Positions 21,525-41,040 are shown, numbered from the stretch's first letter. The stretch is 64,000 bases of DNA from Candidatus Parcubacteria bacterium (GCA_018669975.1 JABHSK010000002.1:73293-137292); one strand, 5' to 3'. Notes: a model not told the origin generated them from the letters alone. Translations and numbers: made by a program.

Positions 21525-21566
21525 TTATAAATTACTATTTTTTTAAATAATATATTTTCATTATAA

Positions 21567-21597
21567 CAAAAAACCATTCCTTTTGGAATGGTTTTTT
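21567..21597. repeat. array element copy 1 (hairpin-only form)
   Basis: aaaaaaccattccttttggaatggtttttt (stem ccattcc/ggaatgg). Acts as a bidirectional terminator. Confidence 0.55.
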
Positions 21598-21619
21598 GTT
21601 ACTTATACATATTTATTGA

Positions 21620-23554
21620 TTATTGAGGTACAAAATCCTCAGTTGGTCGGATGTCTATATACTTGCTTGGTGGGCAAGTAGCCCTATTTAAAAGTAAACT
21701 ATCGTGATATGGCTTACCATTTCGATCGTAGAAATAAGCTTTACTATTATTCCCCTCTCCCCATCCTGGCACCAAAGTAGGCGGCACGCAAAGGTTATAA
21801 TATCTACTCCCATCAGCTGTAATAGAAATATTTCTATAAGGAAGATTAAATATCTCTATTGGACCTGCGTTTAAAAGCATAGCTAAAGGAGACTTTATAT
21901 TGTCTCCACTTATTGGATTTAAATCTGAATAAACATTGTCTGTTAAATTTAATACTCCTATATGTTCCATATGTTGAAAATCAGCCTCGAAGACAGCATC
22001 AACAGAATAATTCAGAATACCTGGCTCTACATCTAAATCTCGATCTAACTCTGCGGCACTTATATTTTGTACGTCCAGTGCCCTAGCTAATATATCATCA
22101 CAATCCTGTGGTATAGCTCTACGCATCAACAAACTATCATAATATGGTGTACCATTGTTATCATAAAAATATAACTTGCGCTCATAGGGAGGTAGGTCTC
22201 TAACAGGAATGACTGTTTTTGGCACACAAATGGTATGACTATTGCCATCAATATCAGAAATGTTAACTATACGTGCTGGTACAGTTTTTTGTTCCTGTTG
22301 AGCATCCACATGATCCACTTCTATAACTAAAGGGGCTTTCTTACCAATATCACCATATCCTGAGCCAAGATTAAAATAATTTCCTCCTAAATCCAGGGTT
22401 CCATAATAGGTCCAATAGGTATTAAAGTCCACCAAGAACTTGATCTCTGGTGCATAATGAGGAAAGTCTCGCACTGTCAAATTAGCGTTAGCATCACCAA
22501 TATCCTCAATATCTAGAGCCCTATCTAAAACAGTATTACAATCCACTGCCAATGCTCTTTGTGTCAATAAAGTATCGTGATAAGGTGTGCCGTTTTTATC
22601 ATAAAAATAGATCACTGGCTCAGGATAGAGCAGAGAATGCCCCATTAATTCGGTGGCTGGTAAACAAATATTATATTCTTGGCCTTCAAAATCAGAAATA
22701 TTAATTATCCTAGCTGGCACAGTTGTACTCTCATTCATTGACCCACCTGAAATACTCACTGCTAAAGGAGAGGTTATATTATTAGGCATGCCATTGCCAC
22801 CACCAAAATTATTTATACTCATATCTAAAAAACCAAAATCATGTGTATAATCCTGAAAGTCTGTATGAAACTTTGCATGAATTTGATGGTTGGTCTCCAC
22901 CATAGTAACTAAATTAACTACGGCTGAACTAATCTCCTCTATGTCTAGAGAATTTGCTAAAATTTCATCACAATTTTTAGATAGTACTCTTTGACCAAGC
23001 AACGCATCATAATAAGGATTTCCCTCAACATCATAATAATAAGAAAAGCTATCATTTGGCCAATCATTTGGCCCTGCAGTTTCAGTAGTTGGCATACACA
23101 AATTATATTCCTGGCCCTCTAGACTAGAAATATGAATAATACGTGATGGAATAGTCTGAAGCCCAGAAGCAGAATGGCTCAATTTTACTTGTAATGGGCT
23201 AGTACTAGAAGTGTATACTGGGCTACCTTGATGATAATAATTTGTTTCTATATCTAACCTTCCTAAATTAGTATCATCTATTATAAATTCTGCGCTAGGC
23301 CTAATCTGACCCTCCCAGTAAGCCATGCTAACCTTGGCATCACCAATATCTTCAACCATTAAAGGTGTAGGAACAACCCTAGGTAAAGGTACAAAGTTTC
23401 TACTTTTAGTAATCCTCATGGGCTTTTTTACCATACCCATAGCCAGGCCGGCAAAATTAAGCCCTAACATAAAAGCAGATATCATCATTATACCGATGAC
23501 TACTTTTTGCGCAGTGGCCACTTGTCCTTTGACCTTTGTTTTTGCTTTTTTCAT
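21620..23554 (-). CDS. membrane-anchored secreted protein with four tandem ~130-aa Cys-pair repeats
   Basis: N-terminal TM anchor, then four repeats of (I/V)P(A/S)RI(I/V)NIS-EGQEYN(L/I)C-P-TE ... YFYD-NG-PY(Y/H)D(S/T)LL-(Q/R)RA...CD-(I/V)L-RALD(I/V)(E/Q)(D/N)I. Confidence 0.55.
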   Translation of the reverse strand: MKKAKTKVKGQVATAQKVVIGIMMISAFMLGLNFAGLAMGMVKKPMRITKSRNFVPLPRVVPTPLMVEDIGDAKVSMAYWEGQIRPSAEFIIDDTNLGRLDIETNYYHQGSPVYTSSTSPLQVKLSHSASGLQTIPSRIIHISSLEGQEYNLCMPTTETAGPNDWPNDSFSYYYDVEGNPYYDALLGQRVLSKNCDEILANSLDIEEISSAVVNLVTMVETNHQIHAKFHTDFQDYTHDFGFLDMSINNFGGGNGMPNNITSPLAVSISGGSMNESTTVPARIINISDFEGQEYNICLPATELMGHSLLYPEPVIYFYDKNGTPYHDTLLTQRALAVDCNTVLDRALDIEDIGDANANLTVRDFPHYAPEIKFLVDFNTYWTYYGTLDLGGNYFNLGSGYGDIGKKAPLVIEVDHVDAQQEQKTVPARIVNISDIDGNSHTICVPKTVIPVRDLPPYERKLYFYDNNGTPYYDSLLMRRAIPQDCDDILARALDVQNISAAELDRDLDVEPGILNYSVDAVFEADFQHMEHIGVLNLTDNVYSDLNPISGDNIKSPLAMLLNAGPIEIFNLPYRNISITADGSRYYNLCVPPTLVPGWGEGNNSKAYFYDRNGKPYHDSLLLNRATCPPSKYIDIRPTEDFVPQ

Positions 23555-23644
23555 AGTTATTAAATTTTTAAGAATTTATTTTATATAAAAATATTATACC
23601 ACAAATAAATATATTTTGAAAATATAAATTTTTTTTAATCAAAA

Positions 23645-23668
23645 AACCTACCTTTTCGGTAGGTGGTA
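23645..23668. repeat. array element copy 2 (variant hairpin cctacc/ggtagg)
   Basis: aaaaaacctaccttttcggtaggtgg. Terminator for the GH3 gene. Confidence 0.45.
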
Positions 23669-23689
23669 AATTTATTATAATGGTTTGTC

Positions 23690-24820
23690 TCAAATTTCTT
23701 TCTTTAATTTCAATATTTTTAATACACTGGCATCAATCTGCTCCATACTTATCTCTCCATCATTTACAGCTTGGATAATCGCATTATATGCCTCAGCTTG
23801 TTTTTCTGGTGTACTAGTATACAGCAAAATGTCATTGCCAGCCTGTATAGCTTTTACCGCTGCCTCAACATTTGAATAATTATTAATCAAAGCGCCCATT
23901 TCCATATCATCAGTAATAACAACGCCATTATAACCAAGTTGATCTTTTAAAATATCTTGAATAAAAACTTTTGACAGGCTACTTGGATTACCCTTGTCTA
24001 TATTTTCATATACTATATGACCAACCATAATCATCTTTGGCTCACTCTCTCTTATTACATCCTTAAATGGTTGTAAGCTATTACCTAACTCTGTTTTAGT
24101 AATGTAGACCGTAGGTAAATCTTGATGGGAATCAATAGAGCCATTGTCATGCCCAGGAAAATGTTTTGGTACAGCAATAATATCATTATCTTGATAACCA
24201 GTTACCATTGACTGAGCTAACACAGAAATATGCTCTAAACTACCCCTGAAAACCCTGTTATATAAAAATGAATTAAAATTATCTATAATATCAAGCACGG
24301 GAGAATAATTTACATTTATACCCAAAGCCTTGAGCTCTTTGGCTCTAGCTACCGCTGTTGCATATGCCTGTTCTTCGCTATCAATCTCTGCCTGAGGGGT
24401 AAATTCTTCTACTCCCTTTATCTTTAGTCTAGAAACTACTCCACCCTCTTGGTCAACTGAAACAAATAAAGGAATACCTGGGTTAGTCTCCAGTGACATT
24501 TCTTGCAAGGTATCTATTAGTTCTTTTGTCTGCCCTTGATTAACAAAATTATACTTCATCAATATCACACCACCAATATTTCTTTGATTAATCATCTTAG
24601 AAATATAATAATCAGGTTTGGGGCCCCAAAAACCAACCATCAACATCTGACCAACTTTATCCTCTAGTGTCATGTTTTCCAACATCTGCCCTGGATCTAA
24701 GGTAGCCAATGTATTCACATCTTCAGTGGCTTGATCATTAACCTGTCTATCTCCAGTTACTAAAAAATAAACCAACCCCAAAGCAACTAAAATGATAAGT
24801 ATTAAAATTAACTTTTTCAT
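23690..24820 (-). CDS. glycoside hydrolase family 3 beta-N-acetylhexosaminidase-like (NagZ-like)
   Basis: KHFPGHDNGSIDSHQDLP signature plus an N-terminal signal anchor. Confidence 0.75.
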   Translation of the reverse strand: MKKLILILIILVALGLVYFLVTGDRQVNDQATEDVNTLATLDPGQMLENMTLEDKVGQMLMVGFWGPKPDYYISKMINQRNIGGVILMKYNFVNQGQTKELIDTLQEMSLETNPGIPLFVSVDQEGGVVSRLKIKGVEEFTPQAEIDSEEQAYATAVARAKELKALGINVNYSPVLDIIDNFNSFLYNRVFRGSLEHISVLAQSMVTGYQDNDIIAVPKHFPGHDNGSIDSHQDLPTVYITKTELGNSLQPFKDVIRESEPKMIMVGHIVYENIDKGNPSSLSKVFIQDILKDQLGYNGVVITDDMEMGALINNYSNVEAAVKAIQAGNDILLYTSTPEKQAEAYNAIIQAVNDGEISMEQIDASVLKILKLKKEI

Positions 24821-24829
24821 ACTTTTATA

Positions 24830-25393
24830 TTAAGAAATGTTATGACTAATAAACCTAAATATTATCCAAAATGAATATATACCAAAAATTCCAAAAACTA
24901 CAAATTTACTAAAAAAGTTTTTATTAGCTTTATTGGCAAAAAGAAAAGGCAACCAAGAAGTCAGTATAAATAAAAGAGCAGTGCCAATATAACTATTTTT
25001 TGCAGCTAATGAATGCCCAATGTCTATAAATATTCCCGATGCCCTATTCAAGGTATCCATTGAGTTAAAAAAGATCATTGCACCAAAACCTAAAGCAGTA
25101 GACACTAAGCCAAAATTTGCCAAATACGGTGCCCACTTTTGTTTTTGCGTTAAATCCCTCTTTAGATAAAATGTATATAGGAAAAAATAAAATAAAATAA
25201 GTATAGAAAATAATACTACAAATAATATTTGAATAGCATCTGTCTGGTCATATGATTCATCTACAAGCCTCAAAATCAAAAAATTCGGTATCAAATACGC
25301 TGTAACTATAACCATTATGACTACGAAAGAAAATAATACTCGCCGCCATAGTTTGGGCTGCTTCATTGGCATGATAGGCAACTCACTTTTCAT
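24830..25393 (-). CDS. polytopic membrane protein, hypothetical
   Basis: Five hydrophobic helices. Confidence 0.4.
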   Translation of the reverse strand: MKSELPIMPMKQPKLWRRVLFSFVVIMVIVTAYLIPNFLILRLVDESYDQTDAIQILFVVLFSILILFYFFLYTFYLKRDLTQKQKWAPYLANFGLVSTALGFGAMIFFNSMDTLNRASGIFIDIGHSLAAKNSYIGTALLFILTSWLPFLFANKANKNFFSKFVVFGIFGIYSFWIIFRFISHNIS

Positions 25394-25418
25394 AACTTTA
25401 TCTTTATTTTAAAAAAAT

Positions 25419-25763
25419 TTATATTTTTTGTTTACTTTTTTTAATTTTTTTTATAACCAAATAAGTAATACTATACAGCATTGTATAAACTACTGCGAAC
25501 ACAGCTGCAAACATACTAGCAATCAGTGGTGGTGTAGAACACCCCCCTCCCTGCATGGACATATACTTTTGCCCTTCTGGACAACTTGCAGAGCCCGCTA
25601 ATAAATACTCCTTCAAATCCATACCACAAGCCTCCATTAATTTCACCTCATCAGCTACAGGGTACCCACTAACACAAAGCATAGGCTGACTAAGCATAAT
25701 CATAAATGACAAAAACACAACTATTGCCAATAATATAAAATAGGTTTTACTAAAAAATTTCAT
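25419..25763 (-). CDS. small Cys-containing membrane protein
   Basis: Two TM helices flank a Cys-rich loop (CVSGY...CGMD...CPEGQ...GGCSTPP). Confidence 0.35.
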   Translation of the reverse strand: MKFFSKTYFILLAIVVFLSFMIMLSQPMLCVSGYPVADEVKLMEACGMDLKEYLLAGSASCPEGQKYMSMQGGGCSTPPLIASMFAAVFAVVYTMLYSITYLVIKKIKKSKQKI

Positions 25764-25772
25764 CGTTTTATA

Positions 25773-26876
25773 CTAAAAATCGTAATTATTATCTAAACTT
25801 TTTAAACATTTATTCCAACAAGATTCTGCATCTTCTTCATCATCACATTGATCACAACTAGCCTTAGGATACCAATATTCTCTTTCTGGAGAATAGTCTG
25901 GAGTCACCTCTTTTATCCTATTTACAATATCAGCAAGCTCCTGTGGGCAATCCACATAACAAATAACTCCTTTTAATTTTAAATTTTCTATGCTTTTTTC
26001 AACACCTTCTGGATAATAGCTATAAGTCATTGTATATACATTGTCTGCCATATCTTCTTCACCGATATCTTTATATTCATCAAATAATTCATCGTAATCT
26101 TCCAGGGCGATAAACAGGTCGTCATTATTCAAAATCATACCATACACCTCTTTATACTCCTCTTCTGAAATAATACTTCTGTTATAACGATCATTGTCTC
26201 CTAGCTTATACTGCAAAATTCCTGTATTCAAAAAATCAATTTCACCACCATCTAAAGACATTATATCTGATGTATTATAAAAACGGGTCATCACATGCTG
26301 TATGTCAGCTCCATCAACTAAATATGGCAATCTTTTACATACACCACTCTTACATCCATTTTCACAATCATATTCAATAAAACTATCTACGAAATAACCA
26401 CTGCCATCCCCCTCTTCAACACAAGTCATTTCTTTGACCTTTGACTTTCCTTCTACACTCATACACCTATCAGCAATCCGATGTGAAACGGCATTCTTGC
26501 TTATAAATTGAATATAACCATCTATATATTTATCGTCCTCGCCTTCAAAAGAATCACTATCAAAGCATGTCCCTGTTTTACATTCTCCGTCTCGCCACAT
26601 ACCGTCTGCTTCTACACAATTTTCTTGCATCCTTACTAGTCTGTCTTTTTCAAAATCACTTAATTCCACCCCCTGCTCTATACTGACAGCACCCCGATCT
26701 TTGTCTCCTGGTTTTGACAATTTATATTTTTTATATAAAGAAAACCCTGGACCTATTACTACTAAAACAAGAATAATAATACTAATTATTAATGCCCAAT
26801 TTTTTTTATCTTCGGCCAGCTCCTCATGTGACACTGGATTATACTCATGCTCCAAATTTTGATTTTTGTCTGCCAT
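25773..26876 (-). CDS. membrane-anchored Cys-rich extracellular protein
   Basis: TM anchor at residues 25-45 and more than 16 Cys in the ectodomain. Confidence 0.4.
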   Translation of the reverse strand: MADKNQNLEHEYNPVSHEELAEDKKNWALIISIIILVLVVIGPGFSLYKKYKLSKPGDKDRGAVSIEQGVELSDFEKDRLVRMQENCVEADGMWRDGECKTGTCFDSDSFEGEDDKYIDGYIQFISKNAVSHRIADRCMSVEGKSKVKEMTCVEEGDGSGYFVDSFIEYDCENGCKSGVCKRLPYLVDGADIQHVMTRFYNTSDIMSLDGGEIDFLNTGILQYKLGDNDRYNRSIISEEEYKEVYGMILNNDDLFIALEDYDELFDEYKDIGEEDMADNVYTMTYSYYPEGVEKSIENLKLKGVICYVDCPQELADIVNRIKEVTPDYSPEREYWYPKASCDQCDDEEDAESCWNKCLKSLDNNYDF

Positions 26877-26883
26877 ATTTTTA

Positions 26884-26938
26884 TTTTAATAACATGTTTA
26901 GTATACCAAAAAATCACTCCTAATGGAATGATCTTTTT
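26884..26938. repeat. array element copy 3
   Basis: ttttaataacatgtttagtataccaaaaaatcactcctaatggaatgatcttttt. Confidence 0.5.
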
Positions 26939-26951
26939 ATAATGAAATAAA

Positions 26952-27860
26952 TTATTTTACCTCTCCGTATGCGTCATCTTCAAATTTTTCCTTGAAGTAA
27001 GTAGCAAACTTTGAAGCAATATATACTCTAAATTTCTCAATGTCCACTTCAGAGGCCTTATTTTTTATTCTCTCCAAAACATTAGCTGGAAATATAGCTA
27101 CTAAAAATTCTGGATACTCATAGCTATCATCACCAGCTCGTTCATGCAACTCAACTAATTGGTCTTTAAGCTCTCCATATTTTGCCCATTTCTTTTCTAT
27201 CAAATACTCCCAATCATCTCCCGTTAAATCACTCTTATCAATTATATCTAAACCATCGAATTTAGTTTGTTTTGCAAACTCAGAAGCATCTAAACCTAAC
27301 TGGCTCATCTCTGCTTCAAGTACCTGATAGTCTAAAATATGCTTACCGCCGGAATCTTCAGCTGCTTTTTTCTTCATGGTAGCTAACATTTCCAATGATA
27401 TTGGCCTAACATTTATTCCACCTATCTCTTTTTCGTCTTCTGGAAAACCACTAGCTGGGAAACTCCAATCTGCCACTTCATAATTACCTGTTTCAGAATT
27501 TATATCAAGCATGGCAACGTCTGCCCTGATACCTGTCTCTGGATTAGTGGCTCTAAATTTGTTACCCCAACCTTCTTCAACTATAAAACCTCTGTCCTCT
27601 AAATCTAAAATCACCTCATCTATATCATCAGTAGTAGTAAAATAATCTATGTCATTTGTTATGTCTCTGTGTGGCTCACCTAAGTGTGCTGCTATTGATA
27701 AACTACCCATCAACCAAACCTTCTTACCATGCTCATTAAAAACCTTCTGAAAATCACTGGCAGATTTCAAAATTTCTGGACTTATACTGGCTTCTTTCTC
27801 TGTTTTTTCTACGACTCCTGCTACGGGAAGACTCTCTTTATTTCTATCTTCAAAACCCAT
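26952..27860 (-). CDS. hypothetical protein, possible minimal nucleotidyltransferase-fold N-domain
   Basis: MGSLSIAAHLGEPHRDITNDIDYF loosely fits G[GS]-x(n)-DxD. Weak. Confidence 0.3.
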   Translation of the reverse strand: MGFEDRNKESLPVAGVVEKTEKEASISPEILKSASDFQKVFNEHGKKVWLMGSLSIAAHLGEPHRDITNDIDYFTTTDDIDEVILDLEDRGFIVEEGWGNKFRATNPETGIRADVAMLDINSETGNYEVADWSFPASGFPEDEKEIGGINVRPISLEMLATMKKKAAEDSGGKHILDYQVLEAEMSQLGLDASEFAKQTKFDGLDIIDKSDLTGDDWEYLIEKKWAKYGELKDQLVELHERAGDDSYEYPEFLVAIFPANVLERIKNKASEVDIEKFRVYIASKFATYFKEKFEDDAYGEVK

Positions 27861-27894
27861 AATTCTAACTTAATTATTATACGCTTATATCAAT

Positions 27895-28191
27895 TTAGTA
27901 CTCTTTATTAGGATCAAAACAAGCACATTGTGAATATTCATGCTCTATACCAGCTGGCCAAAGAGTTCCCTTCTCTAGACATGCTGGCTTATCAACCTCA
28001 CCTGGACAAATAAATCCTAAATCTCTACAAGAAATACTAATATTGCACTCTAATTCACCTTTCCTTAATTGTTCATTGATTTCAAAATTTGAAAATGGTG
28101 CAAATGGTTCTGTGGTATCGGTATTTTTATCTGTAGTACAACCAGCTCCCATCAATAGTGGAATGACTAAAATTAATAAAAGTTTTTTCAT
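27895..28191 (-). CDS. small lipoprotein with 8 Cys
   Basis: Lipobox LLMGAGC plus a Cys-rich mature part. Confidence 0.4.
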   Translation of the reverse strand: MKKLLLILVIPLLMGAGCTTDKNTDTTEPFAPFSNFEINEQLRKGELECNISISCRDLGFICPGEVDKPACLEKGTLWPAGIEHEYSQCACFDPNKEY

Positions 28192-28213
28192 GTCCTTAAG
28201 TTTAAATGATTAT

Positions 28214-28546
28214 TTATAATTCTCCTTGTCCATAATCTTGTCCATAATCCAACTCCTCATTAGATTGGAGTTTATCTAAAAATCTCTGCAATATATCTGC
28301 ATTAGGTGATTCGCCAACATTTACAATCGCCTCCTGTAGAGCTTCCTCATCTTTATCCAAATAGGCCTGTGTGCCTTTCATGTACCAGACAAAATCTTTT
28401 TCCTTATTTTCTAAAACAGCCAGATCAATGGCTTCCTGTAAAAATTTTTTACCCTCTTCTATGTCACCAGCTGCCAATTTAGACTGTGCAGTATGAAAAA
28501 CCTCTATGTAGGCTGGCGATGGTGTTGATTCAAATATTTTCTCCAT
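28214..28546 (-). CDS. small acidic helical (TPR-like) protein
   Basis: 110 aa of helical repeats with no TM segment. Confidence 0.35.
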   Translation of the reverse strand: MEKIFESTPSPAYIEVFHTAQSKLAAGDIEEGKKFLQEAIDLAVLENKEKDFVWYMKGTQAYLDKDEEALQEAIVNVGESPNADILQRFLDKLQSNEELDYGQDYGQGEL

Positions 28547-28550
28547 GGCT

Positions 28551-28592
28551 TTAGTATATCAAAAAACCACTCCTTTTGGAATGATTCTTTAT
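28551..28592. repeat. array element copy 4
   Basis: ttagtatatcaaaaaaccactccttttggaatgattcttta. Confidence 0.55.
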
Positions 28593-28655
28593 GTAAAGAT
28601 TAGTAATTAGGATAAATTTAAAATTAGGTTTCCAGACCTCAGCAATCTCATATTT

Positions 28656-29435
28656 TTATTTTAATAGTTTTAATATCTCACTCTTTTTCCTCTTAGCCTC
28701 CAATTCACCAAACTTTATAATTTCTTTAAATTTTTTTTCTGTTTCTAATAGACCATAGGGGCTAGTGTTTGGTGTTAATAAAACATAACTATCTTTTGGA
28801 ACGCTTTTTATTTTTTCGGTTGTTATCTCTTGCTGCATTATCTTAATACTAGCACCTAAAACATCCAGCAAGTTTATCCTTTGTTTTTTACCTAAACTCT
28901 TATAAGGAGAAACATTTACCATGACATAATGTTTTATGTTTTTTGGAATAATTGAAAAGGGTACTTGGTTCAAAACGCCCCCGTCAATATAATATTGATT
29001 ATTAATCTTAGCTGGACTAAAAATACCTGGCACAGCTATACTAGCACGAATCGCTTTCATTAAATTACCCCTATCAAACACTACTTCAGAGCCACTAGAA
29101 ATATTAGTAGCATTTATGTACAGTGGTATTTTCAAATCAGCGAAATTATCTTTGCCAATAAACTCAAGAAATAATTTTTCCAATTTATTTAAATTTTTTA
29201 TACCCAAAGTGTTTAAAGAAAAATCAAAATTCTTATAAATTTTATTACTCAATATAAAGTCTTCTATCTCTTCTCCTGTTTTTCCAGAAGCATAAAAAGC
29301 TCCAATAACACCTCCCACGCTACAGCCAGCAATTACGCTCACATTTACATTAAGTTTATCCAAAACCTTTAGGACTCCAATATGTGCCATGCCTCTGGCA
29401 CCTCCTCCTGATAAAACTAAAGCTGTTTTTTTCAT
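28656..29435 (-). CDS. patatin-like phospholipase
   Basis: GGGARGMAHIGVL oxyanion motif, GCSVGG (GxSxG nucleophile) and a DGG catalytic Asp motif (YIDGGVLN). Confidence 0.8.
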   Translation of the reverse strand: MKKTALVLSGGGARGMAHIGVLKVLDKLNVNVSVIAGCSVGGVIGAFYASGKTGEEIEDFILSNKIYKNFDFSLNTLGIKNLNKLEKLFLEFIGKDNFADLKIPLYINATNISSGSEVVFDRGNLMKAIRASIAVPGIFSPAKINNQYYIDGGVLNQVPFSIIPKNIKHYVMVNVSPYKSLGKKQRINLLDVLGASIKIMQQEITTEKIKSVPKDSYVLLTPNTSPYGLLETEKKFKEIIKFGELEAKRKKSEILKLLK

Positions 29436-29473
29436 GTTCTTATTATAAAACTTTTATTCTAATTAAAATTATC

Positions 29474-32440: not shown

Positions 32441-32441
32441 T

Positions 32442-32981: not shown

Positions 32982-33004
32982 TTTTTCTTATTTTAATAAT
33001 AATA

Positions 33005-33095: not shown

Positions 33096-33122
33096 AACCA
33101 AAATAGAGGATATTTCTATACT

Positions 33123-33151
33123 ATTGACAAAATAGCTAAAATATGCTATAC
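33123..33151 (+). promoter_or_regulatory. near-consensus sigma-70 promoter (TTGACA-17nt-TATACT)
   Basis: ttgacaaaatagctaaaatatgctatact. Same architecture as the promoter at 12163. Confidence 0.5.
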
Positions 33152-33225
33152 TACTATATTAATCCGAGCAAAGATGGGCTTAAACCCCCTCCTTTGCAAG
33201 TCCGTTCCTTGTCAGGAGAAGAATA

Positions 33226-33525: not shown

Positions 33526-33545
33526 TCTAATGGGAGACTGTTCAT

Positions 33546-33583
33546 GGGACCTAGCGATAATATCAAAGGGTCCTTTTCTTTTT
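33546..33583 (+). terminator. rho-independent terminator
   Basis: gggacctagcgataatatcaaagggtcc followed by ttttcttttt. Confidence 0.6.
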
Positions 33584-33587
33584 GTCT

Positions 33588-33655
33588 AAAAATCAAAAAA
33601 CCATTCCTTTTGAAATGGTTCTTTGATGGGTACTTTCAAAACTTTTTTAGTTGAG
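33588..33655. repeat. array element copy 8
   Basis: aaaaatcaaaaaaccattccttttgaaatggttctttgatgggtactttcaaaacttttttagttgag. Confidence 0.55.
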
Positions 33656-33656
33656 A

Positions 33657-34076
33657 TTAGTGATGAGGAGCCATAGTTTCTTTCTTCTTTCTAGAAAATG
33701 GTAATGCTACGAGCAATGCCAAACCATGCCAAATTATTATATTTTGTATAAAATTTATTATATTAAAGCCTGGACTATAATTAAACCCCTTATCTTCAGA
33801 TAAATATGGGAAAAAACCGAAACTTAGATGCTTCTGACAATATGATTCGCAATTAGCGCTCCTTATACCCCAGGGATCATCAAATTCTTCTAGCTCCTCA
33901 TTATTAATACTATTATCAGTATTACTACAAGAAACTCTACATCTTTCTACATAAAAGGGCTTCCAAGTAGATTCTTCGGTCATTTTATATGAAAAAAGTA
34001 ATGACGCTAAAATTTGAAAAAATAAACCTAAAAAGATTGTAATAACAAATATTTTTTTACCATTAAATTTTTTCAT
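33657..34076 (-). CDS. small secreted/membrane Cys-containing protein (paralog 1)
   Basis: Signal anchor. C-terminal IIIWHGLALLVALPFSRKKKETMAPHH aligns with the neighbour. Confidence 0.5.
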   Translation of the reverse strand: MKKFNGKKIFVITIFLGLFFQILASLLFSYKMTEESTWKPFYVERCRVSCSNTDNSINNEELEEFDDPWGIRSANCESYCQKHLSFGFFPYLSEDKGFNYSPGFNIINFIQNIIIWHGLALLVALPFSRKKKETMAPHH

Positions 34077-34089
34077 AATTATAATTTAA

Positions 34090-34190
34090 ATAATAACTAT
34101 TTCATTATACCATAAATCAAAAAACCAACTAACATTAACCAATTCTTTGATGGAGTCCATTATGAGGCATGTTCGGAACCCAAATTATAG
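34090..34190. repeat. array element copy 9 (degenerate hairpin)
   Basis: aaatcaaaaaaccaactaacattaaccaattctttgatggagtccattatgaggcatgttcggaacc. Confidence 0.45.
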
Positions 34191-34193
34191 AGA

Positions 34194-34553
34194 TTAATGA
34201 TGATGACCTACTATTTTTTTCTTCTTTCTAGAAAAAGGCAAAACTATTAGTAATGCTAATCCATGCCAAGCTATTATATTTATTAAAAAAAATTGTGCGT
34301 TGAATCCTGGTGACGGAATCATCCCTCTATCTTCCTTAAAATATGAAGGAAGGCCAAGACTCAAATAATCAACACATCCAATTGTTGGCATACAGGGGCT
34401 ATTGGAATCACTAACGGAACAACCATCAATAATACAGTGAGTTAATAAAAATGTTAAAGATTCACTCTTCATAGAAGTATATGAAAGCGAGGCTATACCT
34501 TGTAATAAAAAACCTAGAACGAGTGTGATAAATAAAACTTTCTTCCAACTCAT
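34194..34553 (-). CDS. small secreted/membrane Cys-containing protein (paralog 2)
   Basis: C-terminal IIAWHGLALLIVLPFSRKKKKIVGHHH. Confidence 0.5.
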   Translation of the reverse strand: MSWKKVLFITLVLGFLLQGIASLSYTSMKSESLTFLLTHCIIDGCSVSDSNSPCMPTIGCVDYLSLGLPSYFKEDRGMIPSPGFNAQFFLINIIAWHGLALLIVLPFSRKKKKIVGHHH

Positions 34554-34556
34554 AAT

Positions 34557-34660
34557 TTTAATTTAATAACATTCTCAGTATATCAAAAAACCACTTGTTT
34601 ATAAAGTGATTCTTTGATGGGGTCCTCTATGGGGTACTTTCGGAACTTTTTTGGTTGAGA
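34557..34660. repeat. array element copy 10 (full-length)
   Basis: tttaataacattctcagtatatcaaaaaaccacttgtttataaagtgattctttgatggggtcctctatggggtactttcggaacttttttggttgag. Confidence 0.6.
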
Positions 34661-34672
34661 ATCCTAATGTAC

Positions 34673-35176
34673 CTATGATTTCTTAAATTTCCCAACTATC
34701 CATCCAATAACAGAACCAATGAGAACACCCGAAACTACATATATTAAAAAGAGCACAACCTCTTCTACTCCCCTAATTCCCTCTCCCCATAAATACTTTG
34801 CTGCCTTATCAGATAATTTACTGATTATAAAAGTTAAAAGTAATAATAAAACAACACCAAGGCCCCCAATAAGTTGACCTCTCAATATTTCTTTTTTACT
34901 TAAAGACCAACCAATATATAAACCCAGAAGAGTTAGAATAATAAATCCTGGTATACCGAATGCAATCAAAGCTTGTAACACATAAAATATCATTTCATCC
35001 CATTGACAAGTGACCTGATCTACTACAGCTGGACAAGAATAATCACCTATATGAGTTGCTACATAGATAAACATCCAAATTCCAGATATAACAAAAGCTG
35101 ACAGGCCTGCTATCCAACCTACCGTAAAGCCCTTTTTAGTCTTGCTCATTTTACTCCATCTATTTTTAAAACTCAT
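34673..35176 (-). CDS. four-TM membrane protein
   Basis: Hydrophobic helices with a CPAVVDQVTCQ loop. Confidence 0.45.
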   Translation of the reverse strand: MSFKNRWSKMSKTKKGFTVGWIAGLSAFVISGIWMFIYVATHIGDYSCPAVVDQVTCQWDEMIFYVLQALIAFGIPGFIILTLLGLYIGWSLSKKEILRGQLIGGLGVVLLLLLTFIISKLSDKAAKYLWGEGIRGVEEVVLFLIYVVSGVLIGSVIGWIVGKFKKS

Positions 35177-35179
35177 AAT

Positions 35180-35282
35180 GTTATTTTAATAACATTCTCA
35201 GTATAACAAAAAACCATTCCTTTTGGAATGATTCTTTGACTGGGATCCTCTATGGGGTACTTTCAGAACTTTTTTAGTGGAG
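35180..35282. repeat. array element copy 11 (full-length)
   Basis: aatgttattttaataacattctcagtataacaaaaaaccattccttttggaatgattctttgactgggatcctctatggggtactttcagaacttttttagtggag. Confidence 0.6.
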
Positions 35283-35311
35283 ATGAATGAAAATGATATG
35301 AAAAGATTAGA

Positions 35312-35803
35312 TTATTTACTATTAAGTTCAGGACAATTTTGAATTGTTGAGTCCGAAATATAATCTGCATCTTTATAATCTAAAGTTGAAAAATAACCAC
35401 ATAACACGGGATTATCTGGAGGAGTTATATTGTCTGGCATACCAAAACAATTTTCTATAAGATTCCCCTCTCTATCATAAAAGTTTGTTCCTGCATCTGT
35501 ACACCAATCACAGGGAAATATATTTTTAGGTGAAGAACACACAGTTGCATATACCCTGCCATACTTAGAAGTATTCCAAGAAAGAAAAGGCGTGGCTCCA
35601 AATGAATGTTCTTTTGGCACTATCTTTTTAACTATATCCATATCAACTATATCCTCTGCGGGATTAGCGAAAGGATCTTGTAATTTAGTTAAATTATTTT
35701 GTGAAGTGTTAGAAACTTCTTCAAGATTTAAATGACGAAAAAATAAAAAATATACAGCCCATACAAAGACTACAATAATAATAGAAATAACAATTTTTTT
35801 CAT
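35312..35803 (-). CDS. secreted Cys-containing protein
   Basis: Signal anchor plus 8 Cys. Confidence 0.45.
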   Translation of the reverse strand: MKKIVISIIIVVFVWAVYFLFFRHLNLEEVSNTSQNNLTKLQDPFANPAEDIVDMDIVKKIVPKEHSFGATPFLSWNTSKYGRVYATVCSSPKNIFPCDWCTDAGTNFYDREGNLIENCFGMPDNITPPDNPVLCGYFSTLDYKDADYISDSTIQNCPELNSK

Positions 35804-35807
35804 AATT

Positions 35808-35922
35808 TTAAATTAAATAATAACATTTTAATTATACCACAAATCAAAGAATCATTCCTTTTGGAATGATTCTTTGGCTGGGGTCCTCTATGGGGTACTT
35901 TCAGAACTTTTTTGGTGGAGAA
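35808..35922. repeat. array element copy 12 (full-length)
   Basis: ...caaatcaaagaatcattccttttggaatgattctttggctggggtcctctatggggtactttcagaacttttttggtggag. Confidence 0.6.
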
Positions 35923-35945
35923 TGGTGAAGAAATAAAAAAAATTA

Positions 35946-36299
35946 TTAGTAATAATGACTAAAAAATATTATTGAGAAAATAAATCCTAAAATAACAATC
36001 ATAAAATAAATTTGCTTATCCCATCTTTCCCATTTACTTTTTATTACCTTTTTATTAAAAATTTCTTGCCCATTTTTATCAAAATAATCTTCATAGTGTG
36101 TGGCCTTCATAATCTGATAGTGTCTAATAGCTAAAATCAGATATAATATAATTATAACTAATAAAACGTATTTATTATAATTAGCACCTATGTTTTCAAT
36201 ATATATTTTATATAATGGATACCCAAACATAAAAATATATATTGTTTCTACAAAAATAATAGATTTTCTAATATTATTATCAAATTTTACCTTGTTCAT
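35946..36299 (-). CDS. small membrane protein
   Basis: Three TM helices. Confidence 0.4.
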   Translation of the reverse strand: MNKVKFDNNIRKSIIFVETIYIFMFGYPLYKIYIENIGANYNKYVLLVIIILYLILAIRHYQIMKATHYEDYFDKNGQEIFNKKVIKSKWERWDKQIYFMIVILGFIFSIIFFSHYY

Positions 36300-36302
36300 A
36301 AA

Positions 36303-36405
36303 TTAAAATTTATGTATTAAGTATATCAAAAAACCACTTGTTTATAAAGTGATTCTTTGACTGGGGTCCCCTATGGAACACTTTCAGAACTTTTTTGGTT
36401 GAAAC
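36303..36405. repeat. array element copy 13 (full-length)
   Basis: ttaagtatatcaaaaaaccacttgtttataaagtgattctttgactggggtcccctatggaacactttcagaacttttttggttgaaac. Confidence 0.6.
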
Positions 36406-36440
36406 TAGTAAGGAAGAGATGGAAAAATTAAACTATTTAA

Positions 36441-38378
36441 TTAAAAATCACCTACAGGAATTTTACGAATATCAATATTAGATATTCCTAAACTCAGAAA
36501 TCTCATTATTTGATAGGCAGACGAACCATCTGCCATATAATATCTTTTTCCATCATTGGGGTTTACATACCAAGCCTCACCATGTTCTTCTACTTGTAAA
36601 AGAATTTTACCCTTTAGCCTACTGGAAATATTAGAATCGTATAATAATTTCCCTTCCCCTAAAGGATTATAACCATTTTTTACCTCCATACCATCATCAA
36701 ATACATCACCATCTGAATCTGCTTTATTTATATCAGTACCTAAACTTTCCTCTAATTTATCACATAGAGTATCTCCGTCCGAGTCAGTGCACTCAAACCT
36801 ATCTTCAAATCCAATTGGTATTTTGGCCAAATCTAAATTACTAATCCCTAATCCAAATTTCCTAAGAGCTTCATACGCCGTTGCACCATCTTTAAGATAA
36901 TATTTTTGACTAGTGCTTTCATCAACATACCATGCCTCACCATGTTCTTCTACTTGTAACAATATACGCCCCTCAAGCTTATCTATCAATGTTGAATCTA
37001 TATCTGAAATGAGCTCTTTTTCTTTTTCAACCCACAAAGATTCAATGACAAAAGGCTCATCTGGTAATATCTCAGGATCGGGTATAATCACTGGTAATTT
37101 TTTATTTAATTCCATAACCATCTCATAATCCCTATTATTAAAAAAGACCTCATATTGAACATCAAATCTACTTAAATAATCACCGACAACTTCTCCGTTG
37201 TAATCTACTTTAATTATATAGTTCACATAATAATCACGATCTATAACCCTCTCCCATAAACCACTAAGATCTACTATACCGTCCTGATTAGTATAATAAG
37301 TGGCTAGTAATGGACTTGGTAAATCATTCAATGAAGGATCGTCACCACAAAAAATACAACCTGTACGAGAGCCATAAACTCTTACCCTTGCATTATAAAA
37401 TGGCCACCCACTTTTATTAACTACCTTTACAGTAATTGTAGGTTCAAATTCTTCTAGCGCCAACCAGTCTCTTTGGTGTTTTTTATTAGACTTAATCATA
37501 CTAGCATTAAATTCATTAAAAATTTCATTTGTAAGCCAGCCCCCCATACTATCTAGTCCATATTTTTCAGAAAAATTATACTCAGGTAATATTGGTGCTA
37601 CTCCACTATTATCAATATTGTCATTATATAAATAATTTTCTGGAACACCAATACCAAAACTATGTCCAAGCTCGTGAATTATAACGCTCTGCCCATTCCC
37701 ATACCCATCATAGCCATAACTGTTTCTCCAGTCATCAGGAAAATGACTATTCACCTCATCTCTACCCAGAATAGTTGCGCCGTAGGCCAAGCCTTCATTT
37801 ATATCCTGAGAAACATGTACTTGATTGGCAATAAATTCTGTTCCATCGCTAGTATATTTTATATATGAACCATGATTACCTCCTGGTAGATCGTTAATAT
37901 TGGGATATATACTTGAATCTACAACAGTAAATAATACTGTTGTAGAAAATGGTTTTTCATCTCCATCAATAATTTCTACATCATTTAAAAAATGCAGTTC
38001 GTCTATGCTAAATAGATTCCACAACTGCTGACCAATTGTTTGTTGATAATCTAGAGAATAAGTTTTAAATTGAGCAATCTGATACTGAATACCTGTGTCT
38101 TCTTCAAATGCGGTATTTACAAAATCCATAATCTCTTGAGCTCTCTGTTCCCAGTCTGGATGCGATTGTGCATAGTCTTCGTTGATGGCAAATGTAATGT
38201 ACTCATATTGAACTCCAGTCTCAATATCATTTATGGGTAAAATAGATAATTGTTTTTCTAAATTTTCATCATTACCATACTCAAAATTTTCAGCAGCTTC
38301 CACGCTATTTATAAATACTTTGGGAAGTGGTAATAAATTAAAAATAAAACCAACTAGTACAAATATTATTATTTTCAT
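36441..38378 (-). CDS. secreted zinc metalloprotease-like protein with C-terminal Ca-binding module flanked by repeat domains
   Basis: Signal peptide, HELGHSFGIG zincin motif, and a C-terminal DSDGDTLCDKLEESLGTDINKADSDGDVFDDGMEVKNGYNPLGEG module between two LLQVEEHGEAWYV repeats. Confidence 0.6.
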   Translation of the reverse strand: MKIIIFVLVGFIFNLLPLPKVFINSVEAAENFEYGNDENLEKQLSILPINDIETGVQYEYITFAINEDYAQSHPDWEQRAQEIMDFVNTAFEEDTGIQYQIAQFKTYSLDYQQTIGQQLWNLFSIDELHFLNDVEIIDGDEKPFSTTVLFTVVDSSIYPNINDLPGGNHGSYIKYTSDGTEFIANQVHVSQDINEGLAYGATILGRDEVNSHFPDDWRNSYGYDGYGNGQSVIIHELGHSFGIGVPENYLYNDNIDNSGVAPILPEYNFSEKYGLDSMGGWLTNEIFNEFNASMIKSNKKHQRDWLALEEFEPTITVKVVNKSGWPFYNARVRVYGSRTGCIFCGDDPSLNDLPSPLLATYYTNQDGIVDLSGLWERVIDRDYYVNYIIKVDYNGEVVGDYLSRFDVQYEVFFNNRDYEMVMELNKKLPVIIPDPEILPDEPFVIESLWVEKEKELISDIDSTLIDKLEGRILLQVEEHGEAWYVDESTSQKYYLKDGATAYEALRKFGLGISNLDLAKIPIGFEDRFECTDSDGDTLCDKLEESLGTDINKADSDGDVFDDGMEVKNGYNPLGEGKLLYDSNISSRLKGKILLQVEEHGEAWYVNPNDGKRYYMADGSSAYQIMRFLSLGISNIDIRKIPVGDF

Positions 38379-38382
38379 ATTA

Positions 38383-38470
38383 TTATTTTTAATAACATTT
38401 TCAGTATATCAAAAAACCACTCCTTTTGGAATGATTCTTTGACTGGGGTCCCTTACGGACCTTGGTTATA
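38383..38470. repeat. array element copy 14 (distal part truncated)
   Basis: tttttaataacattttcagtatatcaaaaaaccactccttttggaatgattctttgactggggtcccttacggacc. Confidence 0.55.
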
Positions 38471-38495
38471 ACTACATCTTGATAATTACATATTA

Positions 38496-40178
38496 CTAAT
38501 AGTCTACGCTTGGACGCTCCTCAGTGTCGCAAAATCCTCGATCATTACAGCTCAGACCACTAGGGCAACCACATCTCTGGCAATTATCTACTACGTTACT
38601 ATTCTCACAATATTTTGGCTGCTCATGAGGAGAACAATAATCATTCAAATCTATGGTATTAATACAAAAATTATTAAACACATTAGAAATATCAATTAAA
38701 CTTGGACCATCCAAACCAAATTCCTTTGTTGTGGCTATATACTGCCAAAAATCACTATCTTCTTTATATTTATTTTCATCCGACCATTTGACTATATCTT
38801 GAACATCTTGATTTCTTAATACATATGGATACAAAACATTAAATAACTCTTTTGTCCCTTCCAAAAGCCCCGCCCTGTAACCCGGTATATAAGATTCTGC
38901 CACAGAAGGCATAGTCATTAGCTGATGAATATCTCCAAAAATTTCATTATCAATATATAGACTGGCTATTTCATCTTTATCACTATATTCTGCTAAATTT
39001 GCCAATAGTTTAATCAAGTTCTTTATCCCATTAGAATAAAAAACTCCTAGACGGGATTGAACATTGGGATAAAGTGCCATAGATTCATAAACCATATGAT
39101 TATCTTGATTTACACCCATTAAATATCCTCCACTACCGTCAGCTCTCCAAAAATGATATGGCTGTTTATAATTTATTTTATCCAGTTCATAAGAAAATTC
39201 TAATTGATAATCAAATATGTGTGCCATCTTCTCTATTACTTCATTATTTAGCAACTCATTACTCACTAAGGTAGGATTAGCCTCAAGCAACATATTAATA
39301 GTTTCTGGAACACTTATTAAATCAGAAAAAATAAAATTACTAAAGATAGGATCATAATGTTGCAGGTTGTCATTATAATCTTCTGGCATATCCATCAACA
39401 ACTCCTTTTCTCCAATAATAGCTTCCAATCCTGTTTCTTTACGATAATTACATAACATTTTATCAAATAAAGCGGAGGCATAATTTTCATTCACGTACAC
39501 TGGATCAGCTATATTATTATTTATATATGTTAGCTCTGAAGCAATGCTATTACTCTCTCCATACTTAAAAGCAACCATGTCATCCCATTCAGATGCACTC
39601 AAGCTTCCCTCAATTAAAAATTTATCAATTAATTCAAAATATCTATCTATATAAGTAAATAATGGTGCATCAATTGTTGTAATTTCAAATTCGCTACTAC
39701 AGTCCCATTCTGATTCCACGTCATAAGGCGTATACAATAACAAATCGATATTATAAATAAATGGAAAACTATTCATTTGCAAGCCCCATGCATGGTAATC
39801 ATAATATACATTACTCTCATCATCTATAAAAACTTTGTAATCGCCCGTGCTCCCCAAAATTAATGAATAATTACCACTTACATCTGTGACACCAGTATAT
39901 ATTTCACTTTGATTATTAATATTGGTAAAAGTAACTACAATACCAGACAAAGGATCACTACTTATTACATCTTTTACATGCCCCAAAACCTGATTATTAC
40001 TCTGTTTAACAATCGCTGCTGGAACGTTTTTTTTCAATACCAACTTCTCAAAACTAACAGACATCATAGCAAAGGACATAACTCCAAACGAGAGAGCTGC
40101 TCCTGCCAAAACTAATAAAGCTAACTTAGTTTTTGTGTTTAAAGTGCTCTTTGTTTTTGTAGTCATTTCTATTGACAT
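38496..40178 (-). CDS. large secreted protein with C-terminal Cys-rich knot
   Basis: N-terminal TM/signal anchor. C-terminal CENSNVVDNCQRCGCPSGLSCNDRGFCD. Confidence 0.45.
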   Translation of the reverse strand: MSIEMTTKTKSTLNTKTKLALLVLAGAALSFGVMSFAMMSVSFEKLVLKKNVPAAIVKQSNNQVLGHVKDVISSDPLSGIVVTFTNINNQSEIYTGVTDVSGNYSLILGSTGDYKVFIDDESNVYYDYHAWGLQMNSFPFIYNIDLLLYTPYDVESEWDCSSEFEITTIDAPLFTYIDRYFELIDKFLIEGSLSASEWDDMVAFKYGESNSIASELTYINNNIADPVYVNENYASALFDKMLCNYRKETGLEAIIGEKELLMDMPEDYNDNLQHYDPIFSNFIFSDLISVPETINMLLEANPTLVSNELLNNEVIEKMAHIFDYQLEFSYELDKINYKQPYHFWRADGSGGYLMGVNQDNHMVYESMALYPNVQSRLGVFYSNGIKNLIKLLANLAEYSDKDEIASLYIDNEIFGDIHQLMTMPSVAESYIPGYRAGLLEGTKELFNVLYPYVLRNQDVQDIVKWSDENKYKEDSDFWQYIATTKEFGLDGPSLIDISNVFNNFCINTIDLNDYCSPHEQPKYCENSNVVDNCQRCGCPSGLSCNDRGFCDTEERPSVDY

Positions 40179-40182
40179 AATT

Positions 40183-40303
40183 TTATTTTAATAACACTTT
40201 AAGTATATCAAAAAATCACTCCTTTTGGAATGATTCTGTCGTGTTATAAACCTATTGGTCTGGGGGTCCCCTATAGGGGACTTTCGGAACCTTTTTAGTG
40301 GAG
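40183..40303. repeat. array element copy 15 (with ~25-nt internal insertion)
   Basis: ttttaataacactttaagtatatcaaaaaatcactccttttggaatgattctgtcgtgttataaacctattggtctgggggtcccctataggggactttcggaacctttttagtggag. Confidence 0.55.
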
Positions 40304-40321
40304 AATCCTGATTATTTATAC

Positions 40322-40930
40322 CTAAACGCCAATTTCTACTATATCTCCACCCCATAAATCCTCTATACTCTTAAGTATATTATTAAATTCAACAGGACAA
40401 AAGCCATAACACATAACTGCTTTTATGCTTGGCTTCTCTGTCATTCCACAAATATGGTTACCGCAAGTCGTTACAGATATTGTATAGTAAGTTCCATCCA
40501 TTAAATTATTATCTATGTAATTATCTTTTAAATCCCAAAAATGATTGCTATTTATTACATTTATTAAAATTTCATAGTCTGTAGAATCTACATCTCTTCC
40601 AATCTCTTTTCTAATACCATCGTCTAATATATTAGACTCAGCACTGTAAATAACTTGATTACCTTGAATCAATAAGTTAGCCTCTGAAAATGGTGCTTTA
40701 ACTCGTAAGCTTATATTACCTATAATTGGCTTGTGTTCAAATTTAACATCTCTGGACAAATTACTATATAAATCATTTAAAGTATTTTGTTTATCTATCT
40801 CTTTCCAAACAAAAACTCCCGTGATAAACAAAGCTCCCACTATCCCTCCAATAATGGTCATTACAACCACATCATTAAATCCTTCCTGTCTTGAGCGAAG
40901 TCGAAAGATTTGATTTTTAAATAATTTCAT
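40322..40930 (-). CDS. membrane-anchored extracellular protein (pilin-like N-terminus not canonical)
   Basis: Single N-terminal TM (VVVMTIIGGIVGALFITGVFVW) and 5 Cys. Confidence 0.4.
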   Translation of the reverse strand: MKLFKNQIFRLRSRQEGFNDVVVMTIIGGIVGALFITGVFVWKEIDKQNTLNDLYSNLSRDVKFEHKPIIGNISLRVKAPFSEANLLIQGNQVIYSAESNILDDGIRKEIGRDVDSTDYEILINVINSNHFWDLKDNYIDNNLMDGTYYTISVTTCGNHICGMTEKPSIKAVMCYGFCPVEFNNILKSIEDLWGGDIVEIGV

Positions 40931-41040
40931 AATTTATATTTTAATAACATGGCCCAGGCCACCCTCCCTGGCTTCGCCATTCACCTTGTCTTCATTATAT
41001 CACAAAACAAAAAACGAGCTAGGATTAGCTCATTCTTTGA
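40931..41040. repeat. array element copy 16 (GC-rich 5' block plus ctagcta-type hairpin), abutting tRNA-His
   Basis: ttttaataacatggcccaggccaccctccctggcttcgccattcaccttgtcttcattatatcacaaaacaaaaaacgagctaggattagctcattctttga, after which the tRNA-His gene follows directly. Confidence 0.55.

Follow-up and report, generated by a model that had tools for sequence, protein, structure and literature searches.

Short hairpin-bearing intergenic repeats such as REP/BIME, Correia/CREE and RUP/BOX can terminate transcription, stabilise 3′ ends and supply promoters. Integron arrays, among them the Vibrio cholerae repeats (VCRs) and the clusters of attC sites lacking an integrase (CALINs), string together mostly single accessory open reading frames (ORFs) between co-oriented repeats of ~100 nt, with variable content and an occasional reversed ORF that has its own promoter. 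Promoter-coupled intrinsic terminators have been mapped in other bacteria by Term-seq and Cappable-seq (Fletcher, Grainger et al., bioRxiv 10.64898/2026.08.19.745784), and flexible islands built by tycheposons are known in Prochlorococcus (10.1101/2020.12.28.424599). The intergenic repeats of halovirus HF2 (PMC8707807) are likewise reported to supply a promoter to each downstream unit; they belong to a viral genome, carry archaeal promoters and are not reported to have a coupled terminator. Here we analyse a 64,000-nt stretch of DNA from Candidatus Parcubacteria bacterium (GCA_018669975.1 JABHSK010000002.1:73293-137292; the window), in which a short module recurs 15 times in the spacers of a 20-kb run of accessory genes. 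Comparison with relatives shows that the locus is a true tRNA-adjacent hypervariable island, lying between tRNA-His and a ZIP-family transporter gene in a clade of marine Parcubacteria. The reading that we favour, and consider fairly probable, is that the module is a promoter-coupled terminator repeat of this flexible island, spread and shuffled probably by homologous recombination.

The DNA surveyed comprised the AT-rich window (35% GC) and 19 kb added from the two sides of the same 163-kb contig, ENA k141_11351, giving 83 kb of this genome. A profile hidden Markov model (HMM), built from nine copies and run with nhmmer, found 15 copies, all on the minus strand and all within 21553-41046, and a separately scanned covariance model, R1, recovered the same 15, with everything found by the two scans lying between 21553 and 41082. 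The best HMM match elsewhere in the 64 kb had E=0.4, and neither model found a copy outside the island in the 63 kb that the remaining window and the added 19 kb make up together, flanking DNA in which about ten strong, unrelated terminators are present. Motif counts pointed the same way: AARGTTYYGAAM matched 8 times against 0.29 expected and TTTTTGNTATAMT 9 times against 0.09, in every case on the minus (sense) strand and inside the island. The repeat described in the original prediction is thus real, local and far beyond chance; within the 83 kb covered, the covariance scan suggested there placed the element in the array only. Several details had been overstated. In place of at least 16 copies there are 15 members; the spacer at 23555-23689 (minus strand) has no HMM or covariance match and holds an unrelated hairpin with a T-run and a separate TGGTATAAT box. 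Inspection of all 24 spacers in the transcription direction placed the element in 15 of them rather than in nearly every one, the remaining nine measuring 1-135 nt without it.

The element measures ~95-130 nt and is full length in 10 copies. The other five, with matches beginning at 21553, 26879, 28549, 30467 and 40991 (the tRNA-His flank), are right halves, that is, terminator plus promoter without the left block. The conserved 3′-untranslated-region (3′-UTR) block described for every copy is accordingly found in ten and missing from five, and its GGGGTCCYCTATGGGGTAC core (at most 3 mismatches) occurs in just five. Copies are better preserved near the tRNA genes and degenerate far from them. 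ORFs at 20.5-41.0 kb lie nearly all on the minus strand; the array is not entirely so, as had been claimed, because the ORF at 33226-33525 is on the plus strand, and the minus orientation of all 15 copies holds even around it. An Rfam 15 covariance search of 21000-41300 at E up to 5 returned only two tRNAs beyond chance-level matches. Two candidate identities were set aside: a DNA-uptake sequence, because the block-A motif is confined to the island and absent from the window's other 44 kb, and a coding sequence on either strand, because of stops and frame-shifting indels between copies.

Read in the transcription direction, the module has a regular anatomy. Block A, (AGGA)TTCTCCACyAAAAAAGTTCyGAAAGT, lies 0-36 nt past the stop codon, so that the element abuts the stop only sometimes, not as a rule. 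A short GC-rich segment follows, often a 4-6-bp hairpin, and ends in GGAyCCCA. Then come TCAAAGAAT, a variable hairpin and TTTTTT, which is succeeded by TGATATACT directly or by TGGTATAAT 7-8 nt further on, and a leader before the ATG that is AU-rich, typically reads GAGAATGTTATTAAAAT... and has no Shine-Dalgarno sequence. TCAAAGAAT base-pairs with the U-tract, so that A-tract, hairpin and U-tract together make a single stem of 13-15 pairs. Covariation in this stem was tested on 52 distinct copies from the window and its relatives, with 500 shuffles and with the partner slid by 1-3 columns as controls. Over the 13 pairs of the terminator helix, 97% of cells were paired and 10 pairs had changes on both sides; none of the 500 shuffles reached the observed covariation, and sliding the partner lowered pairing to 40-61%. 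RNAalifold run on the same alignment returned the terminator helix and no other. Fold energies of the window hairpins range from -10 to -20 kcal/mol (z between -3.3 and -7.9) in 14 of 15 copies, copy 8 being the exception. The hairpin comes in at least four 'alleles' at one and the same place in the module, and this shows that it is the structure that has been preserved.

An extended -10 box, TGnTATA(A/C)T, is present in 14 of the 15 copies. It follows the T-tract directly at the nine exact TTTTTGNTATAMT sites and stands 7-8 nt further on in the other copies. In 12 of the 14 the box is 20-27 nt ahead of the ATG; atypical spacings are 35 nt (one copy), 6 nt (one) and the longer ones created by a 45-nt insert (two). 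The sole copy without a -10 box (33580-33660) is also the sole copy without a co-oriented downstream gene and faces the end of the plus-strand ORF, and it thereby provides an internal control for the promoter reading. The same extended -10 style is seen in the tRNA operon (TTGACT-17-TGCTATACT) and in housekeeping genes such as the PFOR operon, where a hairpin is followed by TGGTATAAT, so this promoter type is ordinary for the organism. What is special in the module is the tight fusion of U-tract and -10 box, together with the repetition of the sequence. Helix covariation, fold energies and the -10 boxes all speak for the terminator and promoter that had been proposed, and we judge it rather probable that the right half is a promoter-coupled intrinsic terminator, an assignment well supported in silico.

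According to this assignment, the A-tract/hairpin/U-tract would act as a potentially bidirectional terminator that ends the transcript of the upstream gene. Within 0-8 nt the U-tract would pass into the extended -10 box, a new transcript would start there, and its predicted leader would be short, AU-rich and devoid of a Shine-Dalgarno sequence. Termination and renewed initiation at every copy would be an ordinary mechanism, and we take it to be the likeliest one. Like the promoter-coupled terminators already mapped, the module has a hairpin and T-tract followed at once by a -10 hexamer, an A-tract that would confer bidirectionality, a position between tandem genes and stem DNA at the place of the -35 element, and it carries every sequence feature of that class. 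Unlike them, it forms one family with 15 copies in 20 kb, it includes an extra 3′-UTR block and a leader, and it is island-confined and found across species.

The left block behaves differently. Its place is always after a co-oriented gene's stop codon and ahead of the terminator hairpin, and in the relative L021 (4585-4752 and 5830-5942) it precedes a hairpin that belongs to a convergent gene. RNAalifold found no conserved helix in it and Rfam no match; a structured RNA was rejected here because single-sequence folds mostly have z near 0 and the register of the small GC hairpin differs from copy to copy. The left block is a 3′-UTR sequence conserved in primary sequence, not in fold. Its distance to the -10 box varies and it is sometimes missing, hence it is not a phased operator for the next promoter.

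The claim that every gene is insulated by the module fits one part of the array. In the tRNA-proximal 9 kb each gene is predicted to be its own transcription unit; the distal half (23.7-32.3 kb) is made up of operon-like groups of 2-4 genes with spacers of 1-59 nt. At the far end, copy 1 (21553-21619) would drive two further genes, a 238-amino-acid (aa) methyltransferase (20808-21524; Pfam Methyltransf_11) and an 88-aa membrane protein (20521-20787), which form the last transcription unit (20521-21524, minus strand). The array thus extends slightly past the start noted earlier, 21557.

Relatives were located by a metagenome pattern scan, an RpiB-based locus search and look-ups of RpiB homologues; the exact left-block pattern had no match in species-representative genomes, and a scan of viral contigs was likewise empty. 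Sample and bin names (SI..., LP_F_10...) suggest source waters in the oxygen-minimum zone of the northeast Pacific. Gene content was assigned by Pfam scans of the array ORFs and neighbouring ORFs and by precomputed Pfam annotations for the rest of the 83 kb. Six related lineages, L023 (with L022 and L013), L024, L025, L027, L055 and L058, all share the tRNA-Arg/tRNA-His pair followed by the flank of 127-aa gene, RpiB, Rpe, histidine kinase and giant protein, at a DNA identity of 66-81%. Beyond tRNA-His their loci hold almost none of the window's array genes, the exceptions being the 179-aa gene, full length in L055 at another position, and short local similarity for three other proteins. The variable side carries 1-5 co-oriented copies in these relatives and the conserved side none. 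The conserved far border is the ZIP-family transporter gene (18193-18957, minus strand; Pfam Zip, E=6e-43), whose orthologues in L013 and L055 (74% aa identity) occupy the island's far end there too. Between the two borders the island spans ~20 kb in the window, ~9 kb in L023/L013 and 7.3 kb in L055.

Several junctions fall at the element. Along a 407-aa gene, a YibE_F gene, the left block and the A-tract, L055 and the L015/L017 pair have 91-96% identity; past the A-tract the hairpin changes from type-1 to type-2 and different genes follow: one continues with a 177-aa membrane protein, the other with a lipoprotein, an MFS transporter and CorA. The CorA genes of L013 and L017 agree at 90% identity, and L012 and L025 have a 207-aa gene in common at 92%, in surroundings that are otherwise unrelated; in both cases the similarity begins at the U-tract/promoter and stops just past the stop codon. 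The 179-aa protein of the window is 91% identical to that of L055, versus 74-83% for the core flank proteins, and lies at a different distance from the tRNA. A unit of a 417-aa and a 117-aa gene bracketed by copies is duplicated in the L021/L070 lineage. Exact segments also recur across lineages whose core DNA is only ~70% identical: a 40-mer that includes the hairpin loop is found in the window (three copies), L015/L017 and L023, and a 29-mer in L023 and L027. In L070 the genes are of mixed orientation, yet all 11 copies are on the same strand. The cassette array that had been proposed stands in so far as flanks are conserved, content differs, junctions fall at the element and one unit is duplicated. 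Three points argue against an integron-like system of mobile cassettes: neither a recombinase nor an att site was found in the window, gene order is the same in all same-species contigs examined, and a diverged subfamily of the element occurs at a non-tRNA locus in one relative.

Under recombination as we envisage it, homologous recombination or gene conversion between co-oriented copies would keep them alike, and the same process would yield gene gain, loss, duplication and reordering, within genomes and, following DNA uptake, probably between related ones too; the process would need no dedicated integrase. A stronger form casts the copies as portable homology arms, with the genes between them excised, duplicated and swapped by RecA-type recombination among naturally competent Patescibacteria, and with the left block marking the 3′ boundary or binding some factor. 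This form we regard as tentative and on balance doubtful, and the left block, the fixed polarity and the exact segments across species leave a modest amount of room for such a more specific cassette mechanism.

Several points weigh against the reading that we favour. Among contigs of the same species, 19 encode an identical 163-aa protein, and in the ten places displayed, from at least eight samples, gene order is the same throughout; the comparison of cassette content between strains that had been suggested thus brought out no variation in the contigs examined, and the invariant order implies that turnover is slow. Evidence of a clean junction comes from one comparison of close relatives, that of L055 with L015/L017, and the remaining shared segments may be genes passed down vertically, with flanks that have since diverged. 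Conservation between species could likewise come from selection on function rather than from exchange. A diverged subfamily in the L021/L070 lineage fills a non-tRNA locus by MacB/LolD, so the element family is not strictly tied to tRNA-His. The left block falls outside what the favoured reading explains, the promoter and terminator activities are read from sequence, and the survey for copies covers 83 kb of this genome.

If selection were the main force, the left block could be a site for an RNA or DNA regulator that controls read-through or expression of surface genes, and function, not recombination, would keep the sequences alike. Its primary sequence, without a conserved fold, is indeed retained across lineages with ~70% core identity, it always stands just upstream of the terminator, even a foreign one, and it contains two GGA motifs. 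Yet the varying distance to the -10 box and the absence of the block from 5 of 15 copies argue against a phased promoter-proximal operator, the island holds no candidate regulator gene, and co-regulation leaves the identical hairpin alleles across lineages unaccounted for; we consider it unlikely. An integron-like system, in which the repeats would be attC-analogous sites for a recombinase encoded elsewhere and the units between them mobile cassettes, seems more unlikely still. It would account for co-oriented repeats that bound mostly single accessory ORFs, for an orientation of the repeats that stays constant despite reversed ORFs (33226-33525 in the window, and among the 11 copies of L070), for the duplicated unit and the gene content that differs between relatives, and large serine and Xer-like recombinases lie 3-9 kb from the L021-lineage array. 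The 64-kb window, however, encodes no recombinase detectable with Pfam, the nearest being a weak Phage_integrase (tyrosine-recombinase) fragment (E=6e-4) ~31 kb beyond the distal end. Nor is the attC architecture R''(RYYYAAC)-L''...L'-R'(GTTRRRY) present, the only conserved helix being the terminator; the GTT-containing motifs GTTCTGA and GTTATTA were rejected as attC-like sites because they do not match GTTRRRY. Unlike integrons, the array has no IntI, attI or Pc, and integron cassettes are promoterless and driven from Pc, whereas here the repeats carry a terminator and, in 14 of 15 copies, their own -10 box. Breakpoints lie now on one side of the hairpin, now on the other, and not at a single fixed position, and cassette turnover at the strain level was not seen.

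The position of the array at the CCA end of tRNA-His raises the further idea that each unit was brought by an integrase that duplicated the tRNA 3′ end, in the manner of tycheposons. The tRNA flank has the right half of the element, ACCCCA and TCAAAGAAT are common to the copies and to the tRNA end and its flank, and the gradient from preserved copies near the tRNA to degenerate ones far away matches the push-along pattern of tycheposon islands (10.1101/2020.12.28.424599), which share with this locus a variable region next to a tRNA, conserved flanks and a streamlined marine bacterium as carrier. The island differs from them in that integrases and partial-tRNA direct repeats are absent and single genes are split by a regulatory repeat. 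Left blocks (n=13) aligned to tRNA-His gave p = 0.03-0.93, no better than shuffled sequence or tRNA-Arg, the Rfam tRNA model at E up to 5 found no partial tRNA in the island, and Pfam found no integrase there, intact or fragmentary. The units are single genes of 0.4-2 kb, and the element is still present in relatives whose tRNA-His flank is different. The lead given by ACCCCA and TCAAAGAAT, that the copies contain partial tRNA-His repeats as att scars, was rejected by alignment and Rfam, and scars of tRNA integration, largely refuted, are highly improbable. The element could also be a MITE (miniature inverted-repeat transposable element) or REP-like mobile intergenic element that incidentally carries a terminator and an outward promoter, as the Correia elements of Neisseria do. 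In favour are its short length, intergenic position and internal hairpins, its occurrence in several related species with identity above that of core genes, a second type of locus where one lineage has it, and the small GC-rich inserts found inside copies in either orientation. We rate this about as improbable as an integron: terminal inverted repeats were not significant in 10 copies (p = 0.05-0.94 versus shuffles, left end against the reverse complement of the right end), each locus holds a single orientation, no copy lies in 63 kb of flanking DNA, the window contains no transposase or RAYT gene, and the left block is always bound to the 3′ end of a co-oriented gene. The pair ATTCTCA...TGAGAAT, which had suggested MITE-like inverted repeats in one copy, is among those not significant across the 10. 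In these respects the module is unlike REP, Correia and BOX repeats, being of one orientation and clustered within 83 kb, with neither terminal inverted repeats nor a cognate transposase found.

The individual copies, all on the minus strand, can be followed from the far end of the island towards the tRNA genes. Copy 1 (21553-21619) is a right half with a type-1 terminator hairpin and TGTTATAAT (nhmmer E=6e-7; covariance model 44.1 bits; fold -19.8 kcal/mol, z -7.3), and the start codon at 21524 lies 35 nt after its -10 box. Copies 2 to 4, identified by HMM, covariance model and fold, are right halves too: copy 2 (26879-26951) consists of terminator, TGGTATACT and leader and folds at -14.4 kcal/mol; copy 3 (28547-28618) has its -10 box 6 nt before the ATG, so the transcript of the gene at 28214-28546 is probably leaderless; and copy 4 (30458-30544) has a type-2-like hairpin and TTTTCTGATATACT. 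The same -10-to-ATG spacing as in copy 3 is seen at the 127-aa gene at 41281. Copy 5 (32258-32441; covariance model and alignment) is full length and has a GC-rich insertion within its left block as well as a 45-nt GC-rich leader insert (32275-32320). Copy 6 (32982-33101), also full, has a type-3 hairpin and TGGTATAAT (72.6 bits; fold -14.4 kcal/mol), and copy 7 (33580-33660; covariance model, alignment and fold), the one lacking a -10 box, retains left block and terminator. Copy 8 (34077-34197) is full with a weak hairpin at 34118-34158 (71.8 bits; fold -4.4 kcal/mol, z +0.4).

Nearer the tRNA genes, copy 9 (34554-34668) is full with a type-2 hairpin (97.2 bits) and includes the 40-mer identical in L023, L015 and L017. 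Copy 10 (35177-35290) is full with a type-1 hairpin (101.4 bits; fold -16 kcal/mol), copy 11 (35804-35930) is full with a perfect 14-bp palindromic stem and TGGTATAAT (92.1 bits; fold -20 kcal/mol), and copy 12 (36300-36412) is full with a type-2 hairpin (96.4 bits). Copy 13 (38379-38488; 81.5 bits) is without block A, and its sequence has a GGTCC-GTAAG-GGACC hairpin and then CCA. In copy 14 (40179-40312; 74.3 bits), which is full, the alignment places a 20-nt insertion ahead of the terminator. Copy 15 (40931-41040; HMM, covariance model and fold) is a right half located directly 3′ of the tRNA-His CCA, with a type-3 terminator, TGATATAAT and a 45-nt leader insert (40950-40993). The head of the array and conserved near border is the pair tRNA-His(GTG) and tRNA-Arg(TCT) at 41041-41207 on the minus strand, found by ARAGORN and Rfam. 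Five short contigs of the window genotype, with identical RpiB (L003, L006, L008, L009 and L010), end at or within this pair, which fits assembly breaks caused by the repeats or, alternatively, co-occurring lineages with different islands.

Concerning the genes, the types named in the original prediction were recovered: Pfam scans gave GH3, patatin and bactofilin, together with a weak match for a reprolysin-like metalloprotease. They also gave a nucleotidyltransferase, and proteins of 139 and 119 aa are paralogues with 39% identity. N-terminal or multiple hydrophobic segments occur in 17 of 22 proteins. The plus-strand ORF at 33226-33525, bracketed by minus-oriented copies, encodes a 99-aa ORFan whose only homologues among 5.8 billion proteins are identical copies. 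In its region (33100-33590) a near-consensus promoter, TTGACA-17-TGCTATACT, goes with a long 5′ UTR and an AGGAG Shine-Dalgarno sequence, and the unit has its own terminator; the Shine-Dalgarno sequence sets it apart from the array genes, which are without one, and its GC content is 43% versus 33% for the island. At the other extreme, the 117-aa membrane-protein gene at 35946-36299 (minus strand) has the window minimum of 20% GC. The 179-aa array protein (32442-32981, minus strand) has a 54%-identical paralogue outside the island at 63132-63653 (minus strand). The metalloprotease (36441-38378, minus strand) and the 1430-aa giant protein of the flank (44146-48438, minus strand) share a 47-aa segment at 68% identity, which recurs in island proteins of relatives; there is a faint TSP3_bac Pfam match on the giant protein, and the shared segment suggests a common cell-surface module.

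The GC-rich leader insert seen in copies 5 and 15 (AAGGTGAATGGCGA...GGTGGCCTGGGCCATG, ~45 nt) is near-invariant and sits between the -10 box and the AU-rich leader. It is present in relatives at L055 ~3210-3260, L013 ~3730-3775 and ~5385-5430, and L024 ~3170-3215, and in four lineages it precedes unrelated genes (DUF6438-like, small membrane protein plus YbjQ, NYN-like and ZIP). It contains an SD-like AAGGTGA as well as GAGGGTGG near the predicted 5′ end, and it may serve to stabilise the mRNA or be a small mobile insert; a riboswitch was set aside given the lack of an Rfam match and copies too invariant for covariation. Other small GC-rich inserts, akin to GCGAAGCCGAGGG or GGGTCTACGA and in either orientation, lie within copies at L021 8986-9170, L022 1730-1850, L012 3985-4110 and 32340-32400 in the window, and look like the mobile GC clusters of other AT-rich genomes. 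In the L021 lineage (L071 1-4327), a DNA methylase, two small ORFs and two recombinases, one a 530-aa large serine recombinase and the other a Xer-like enzyme by rpsO, stand ahead of the array; this region may be an integrated element that abuts it. Outside the island, two tandem c-di-GMP-II riboswitch aptamers on the plus strand (16756-16839 and 16910-16993; 73 and 72 bits) stand ahead of a hairpin with T-run (17012-17043) that resembles a terminator. Next comes a 240-aa ORF (17140-17862) without a Pfam match, and the arrangement of aptamers and hairpin looks like a tandem riboswitch-attenuator.

Patescibacteria are host-dependent and have very small genomes, and variable surface and secreted proteins are therefore likely to be central to their lifestyle. 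In the island described here, one reusable module of ~100 nt would turn a run of unrelated accessory genes into separate units, and relatives retain the module while replacing the genes. The locus offers a natural, repeated example of the recently described coupling of promoters to terminators, and the module is a candidate promoter/terminator part for new genetic systems in the phylum. It also allows a test of whether conserved regulatory repeats are able to drive cassette-like turnover without an integrase; if the copies do serve as portable homology arms, the island would be an integrase-free functional analogue of the integron for surface and secreted proteins.

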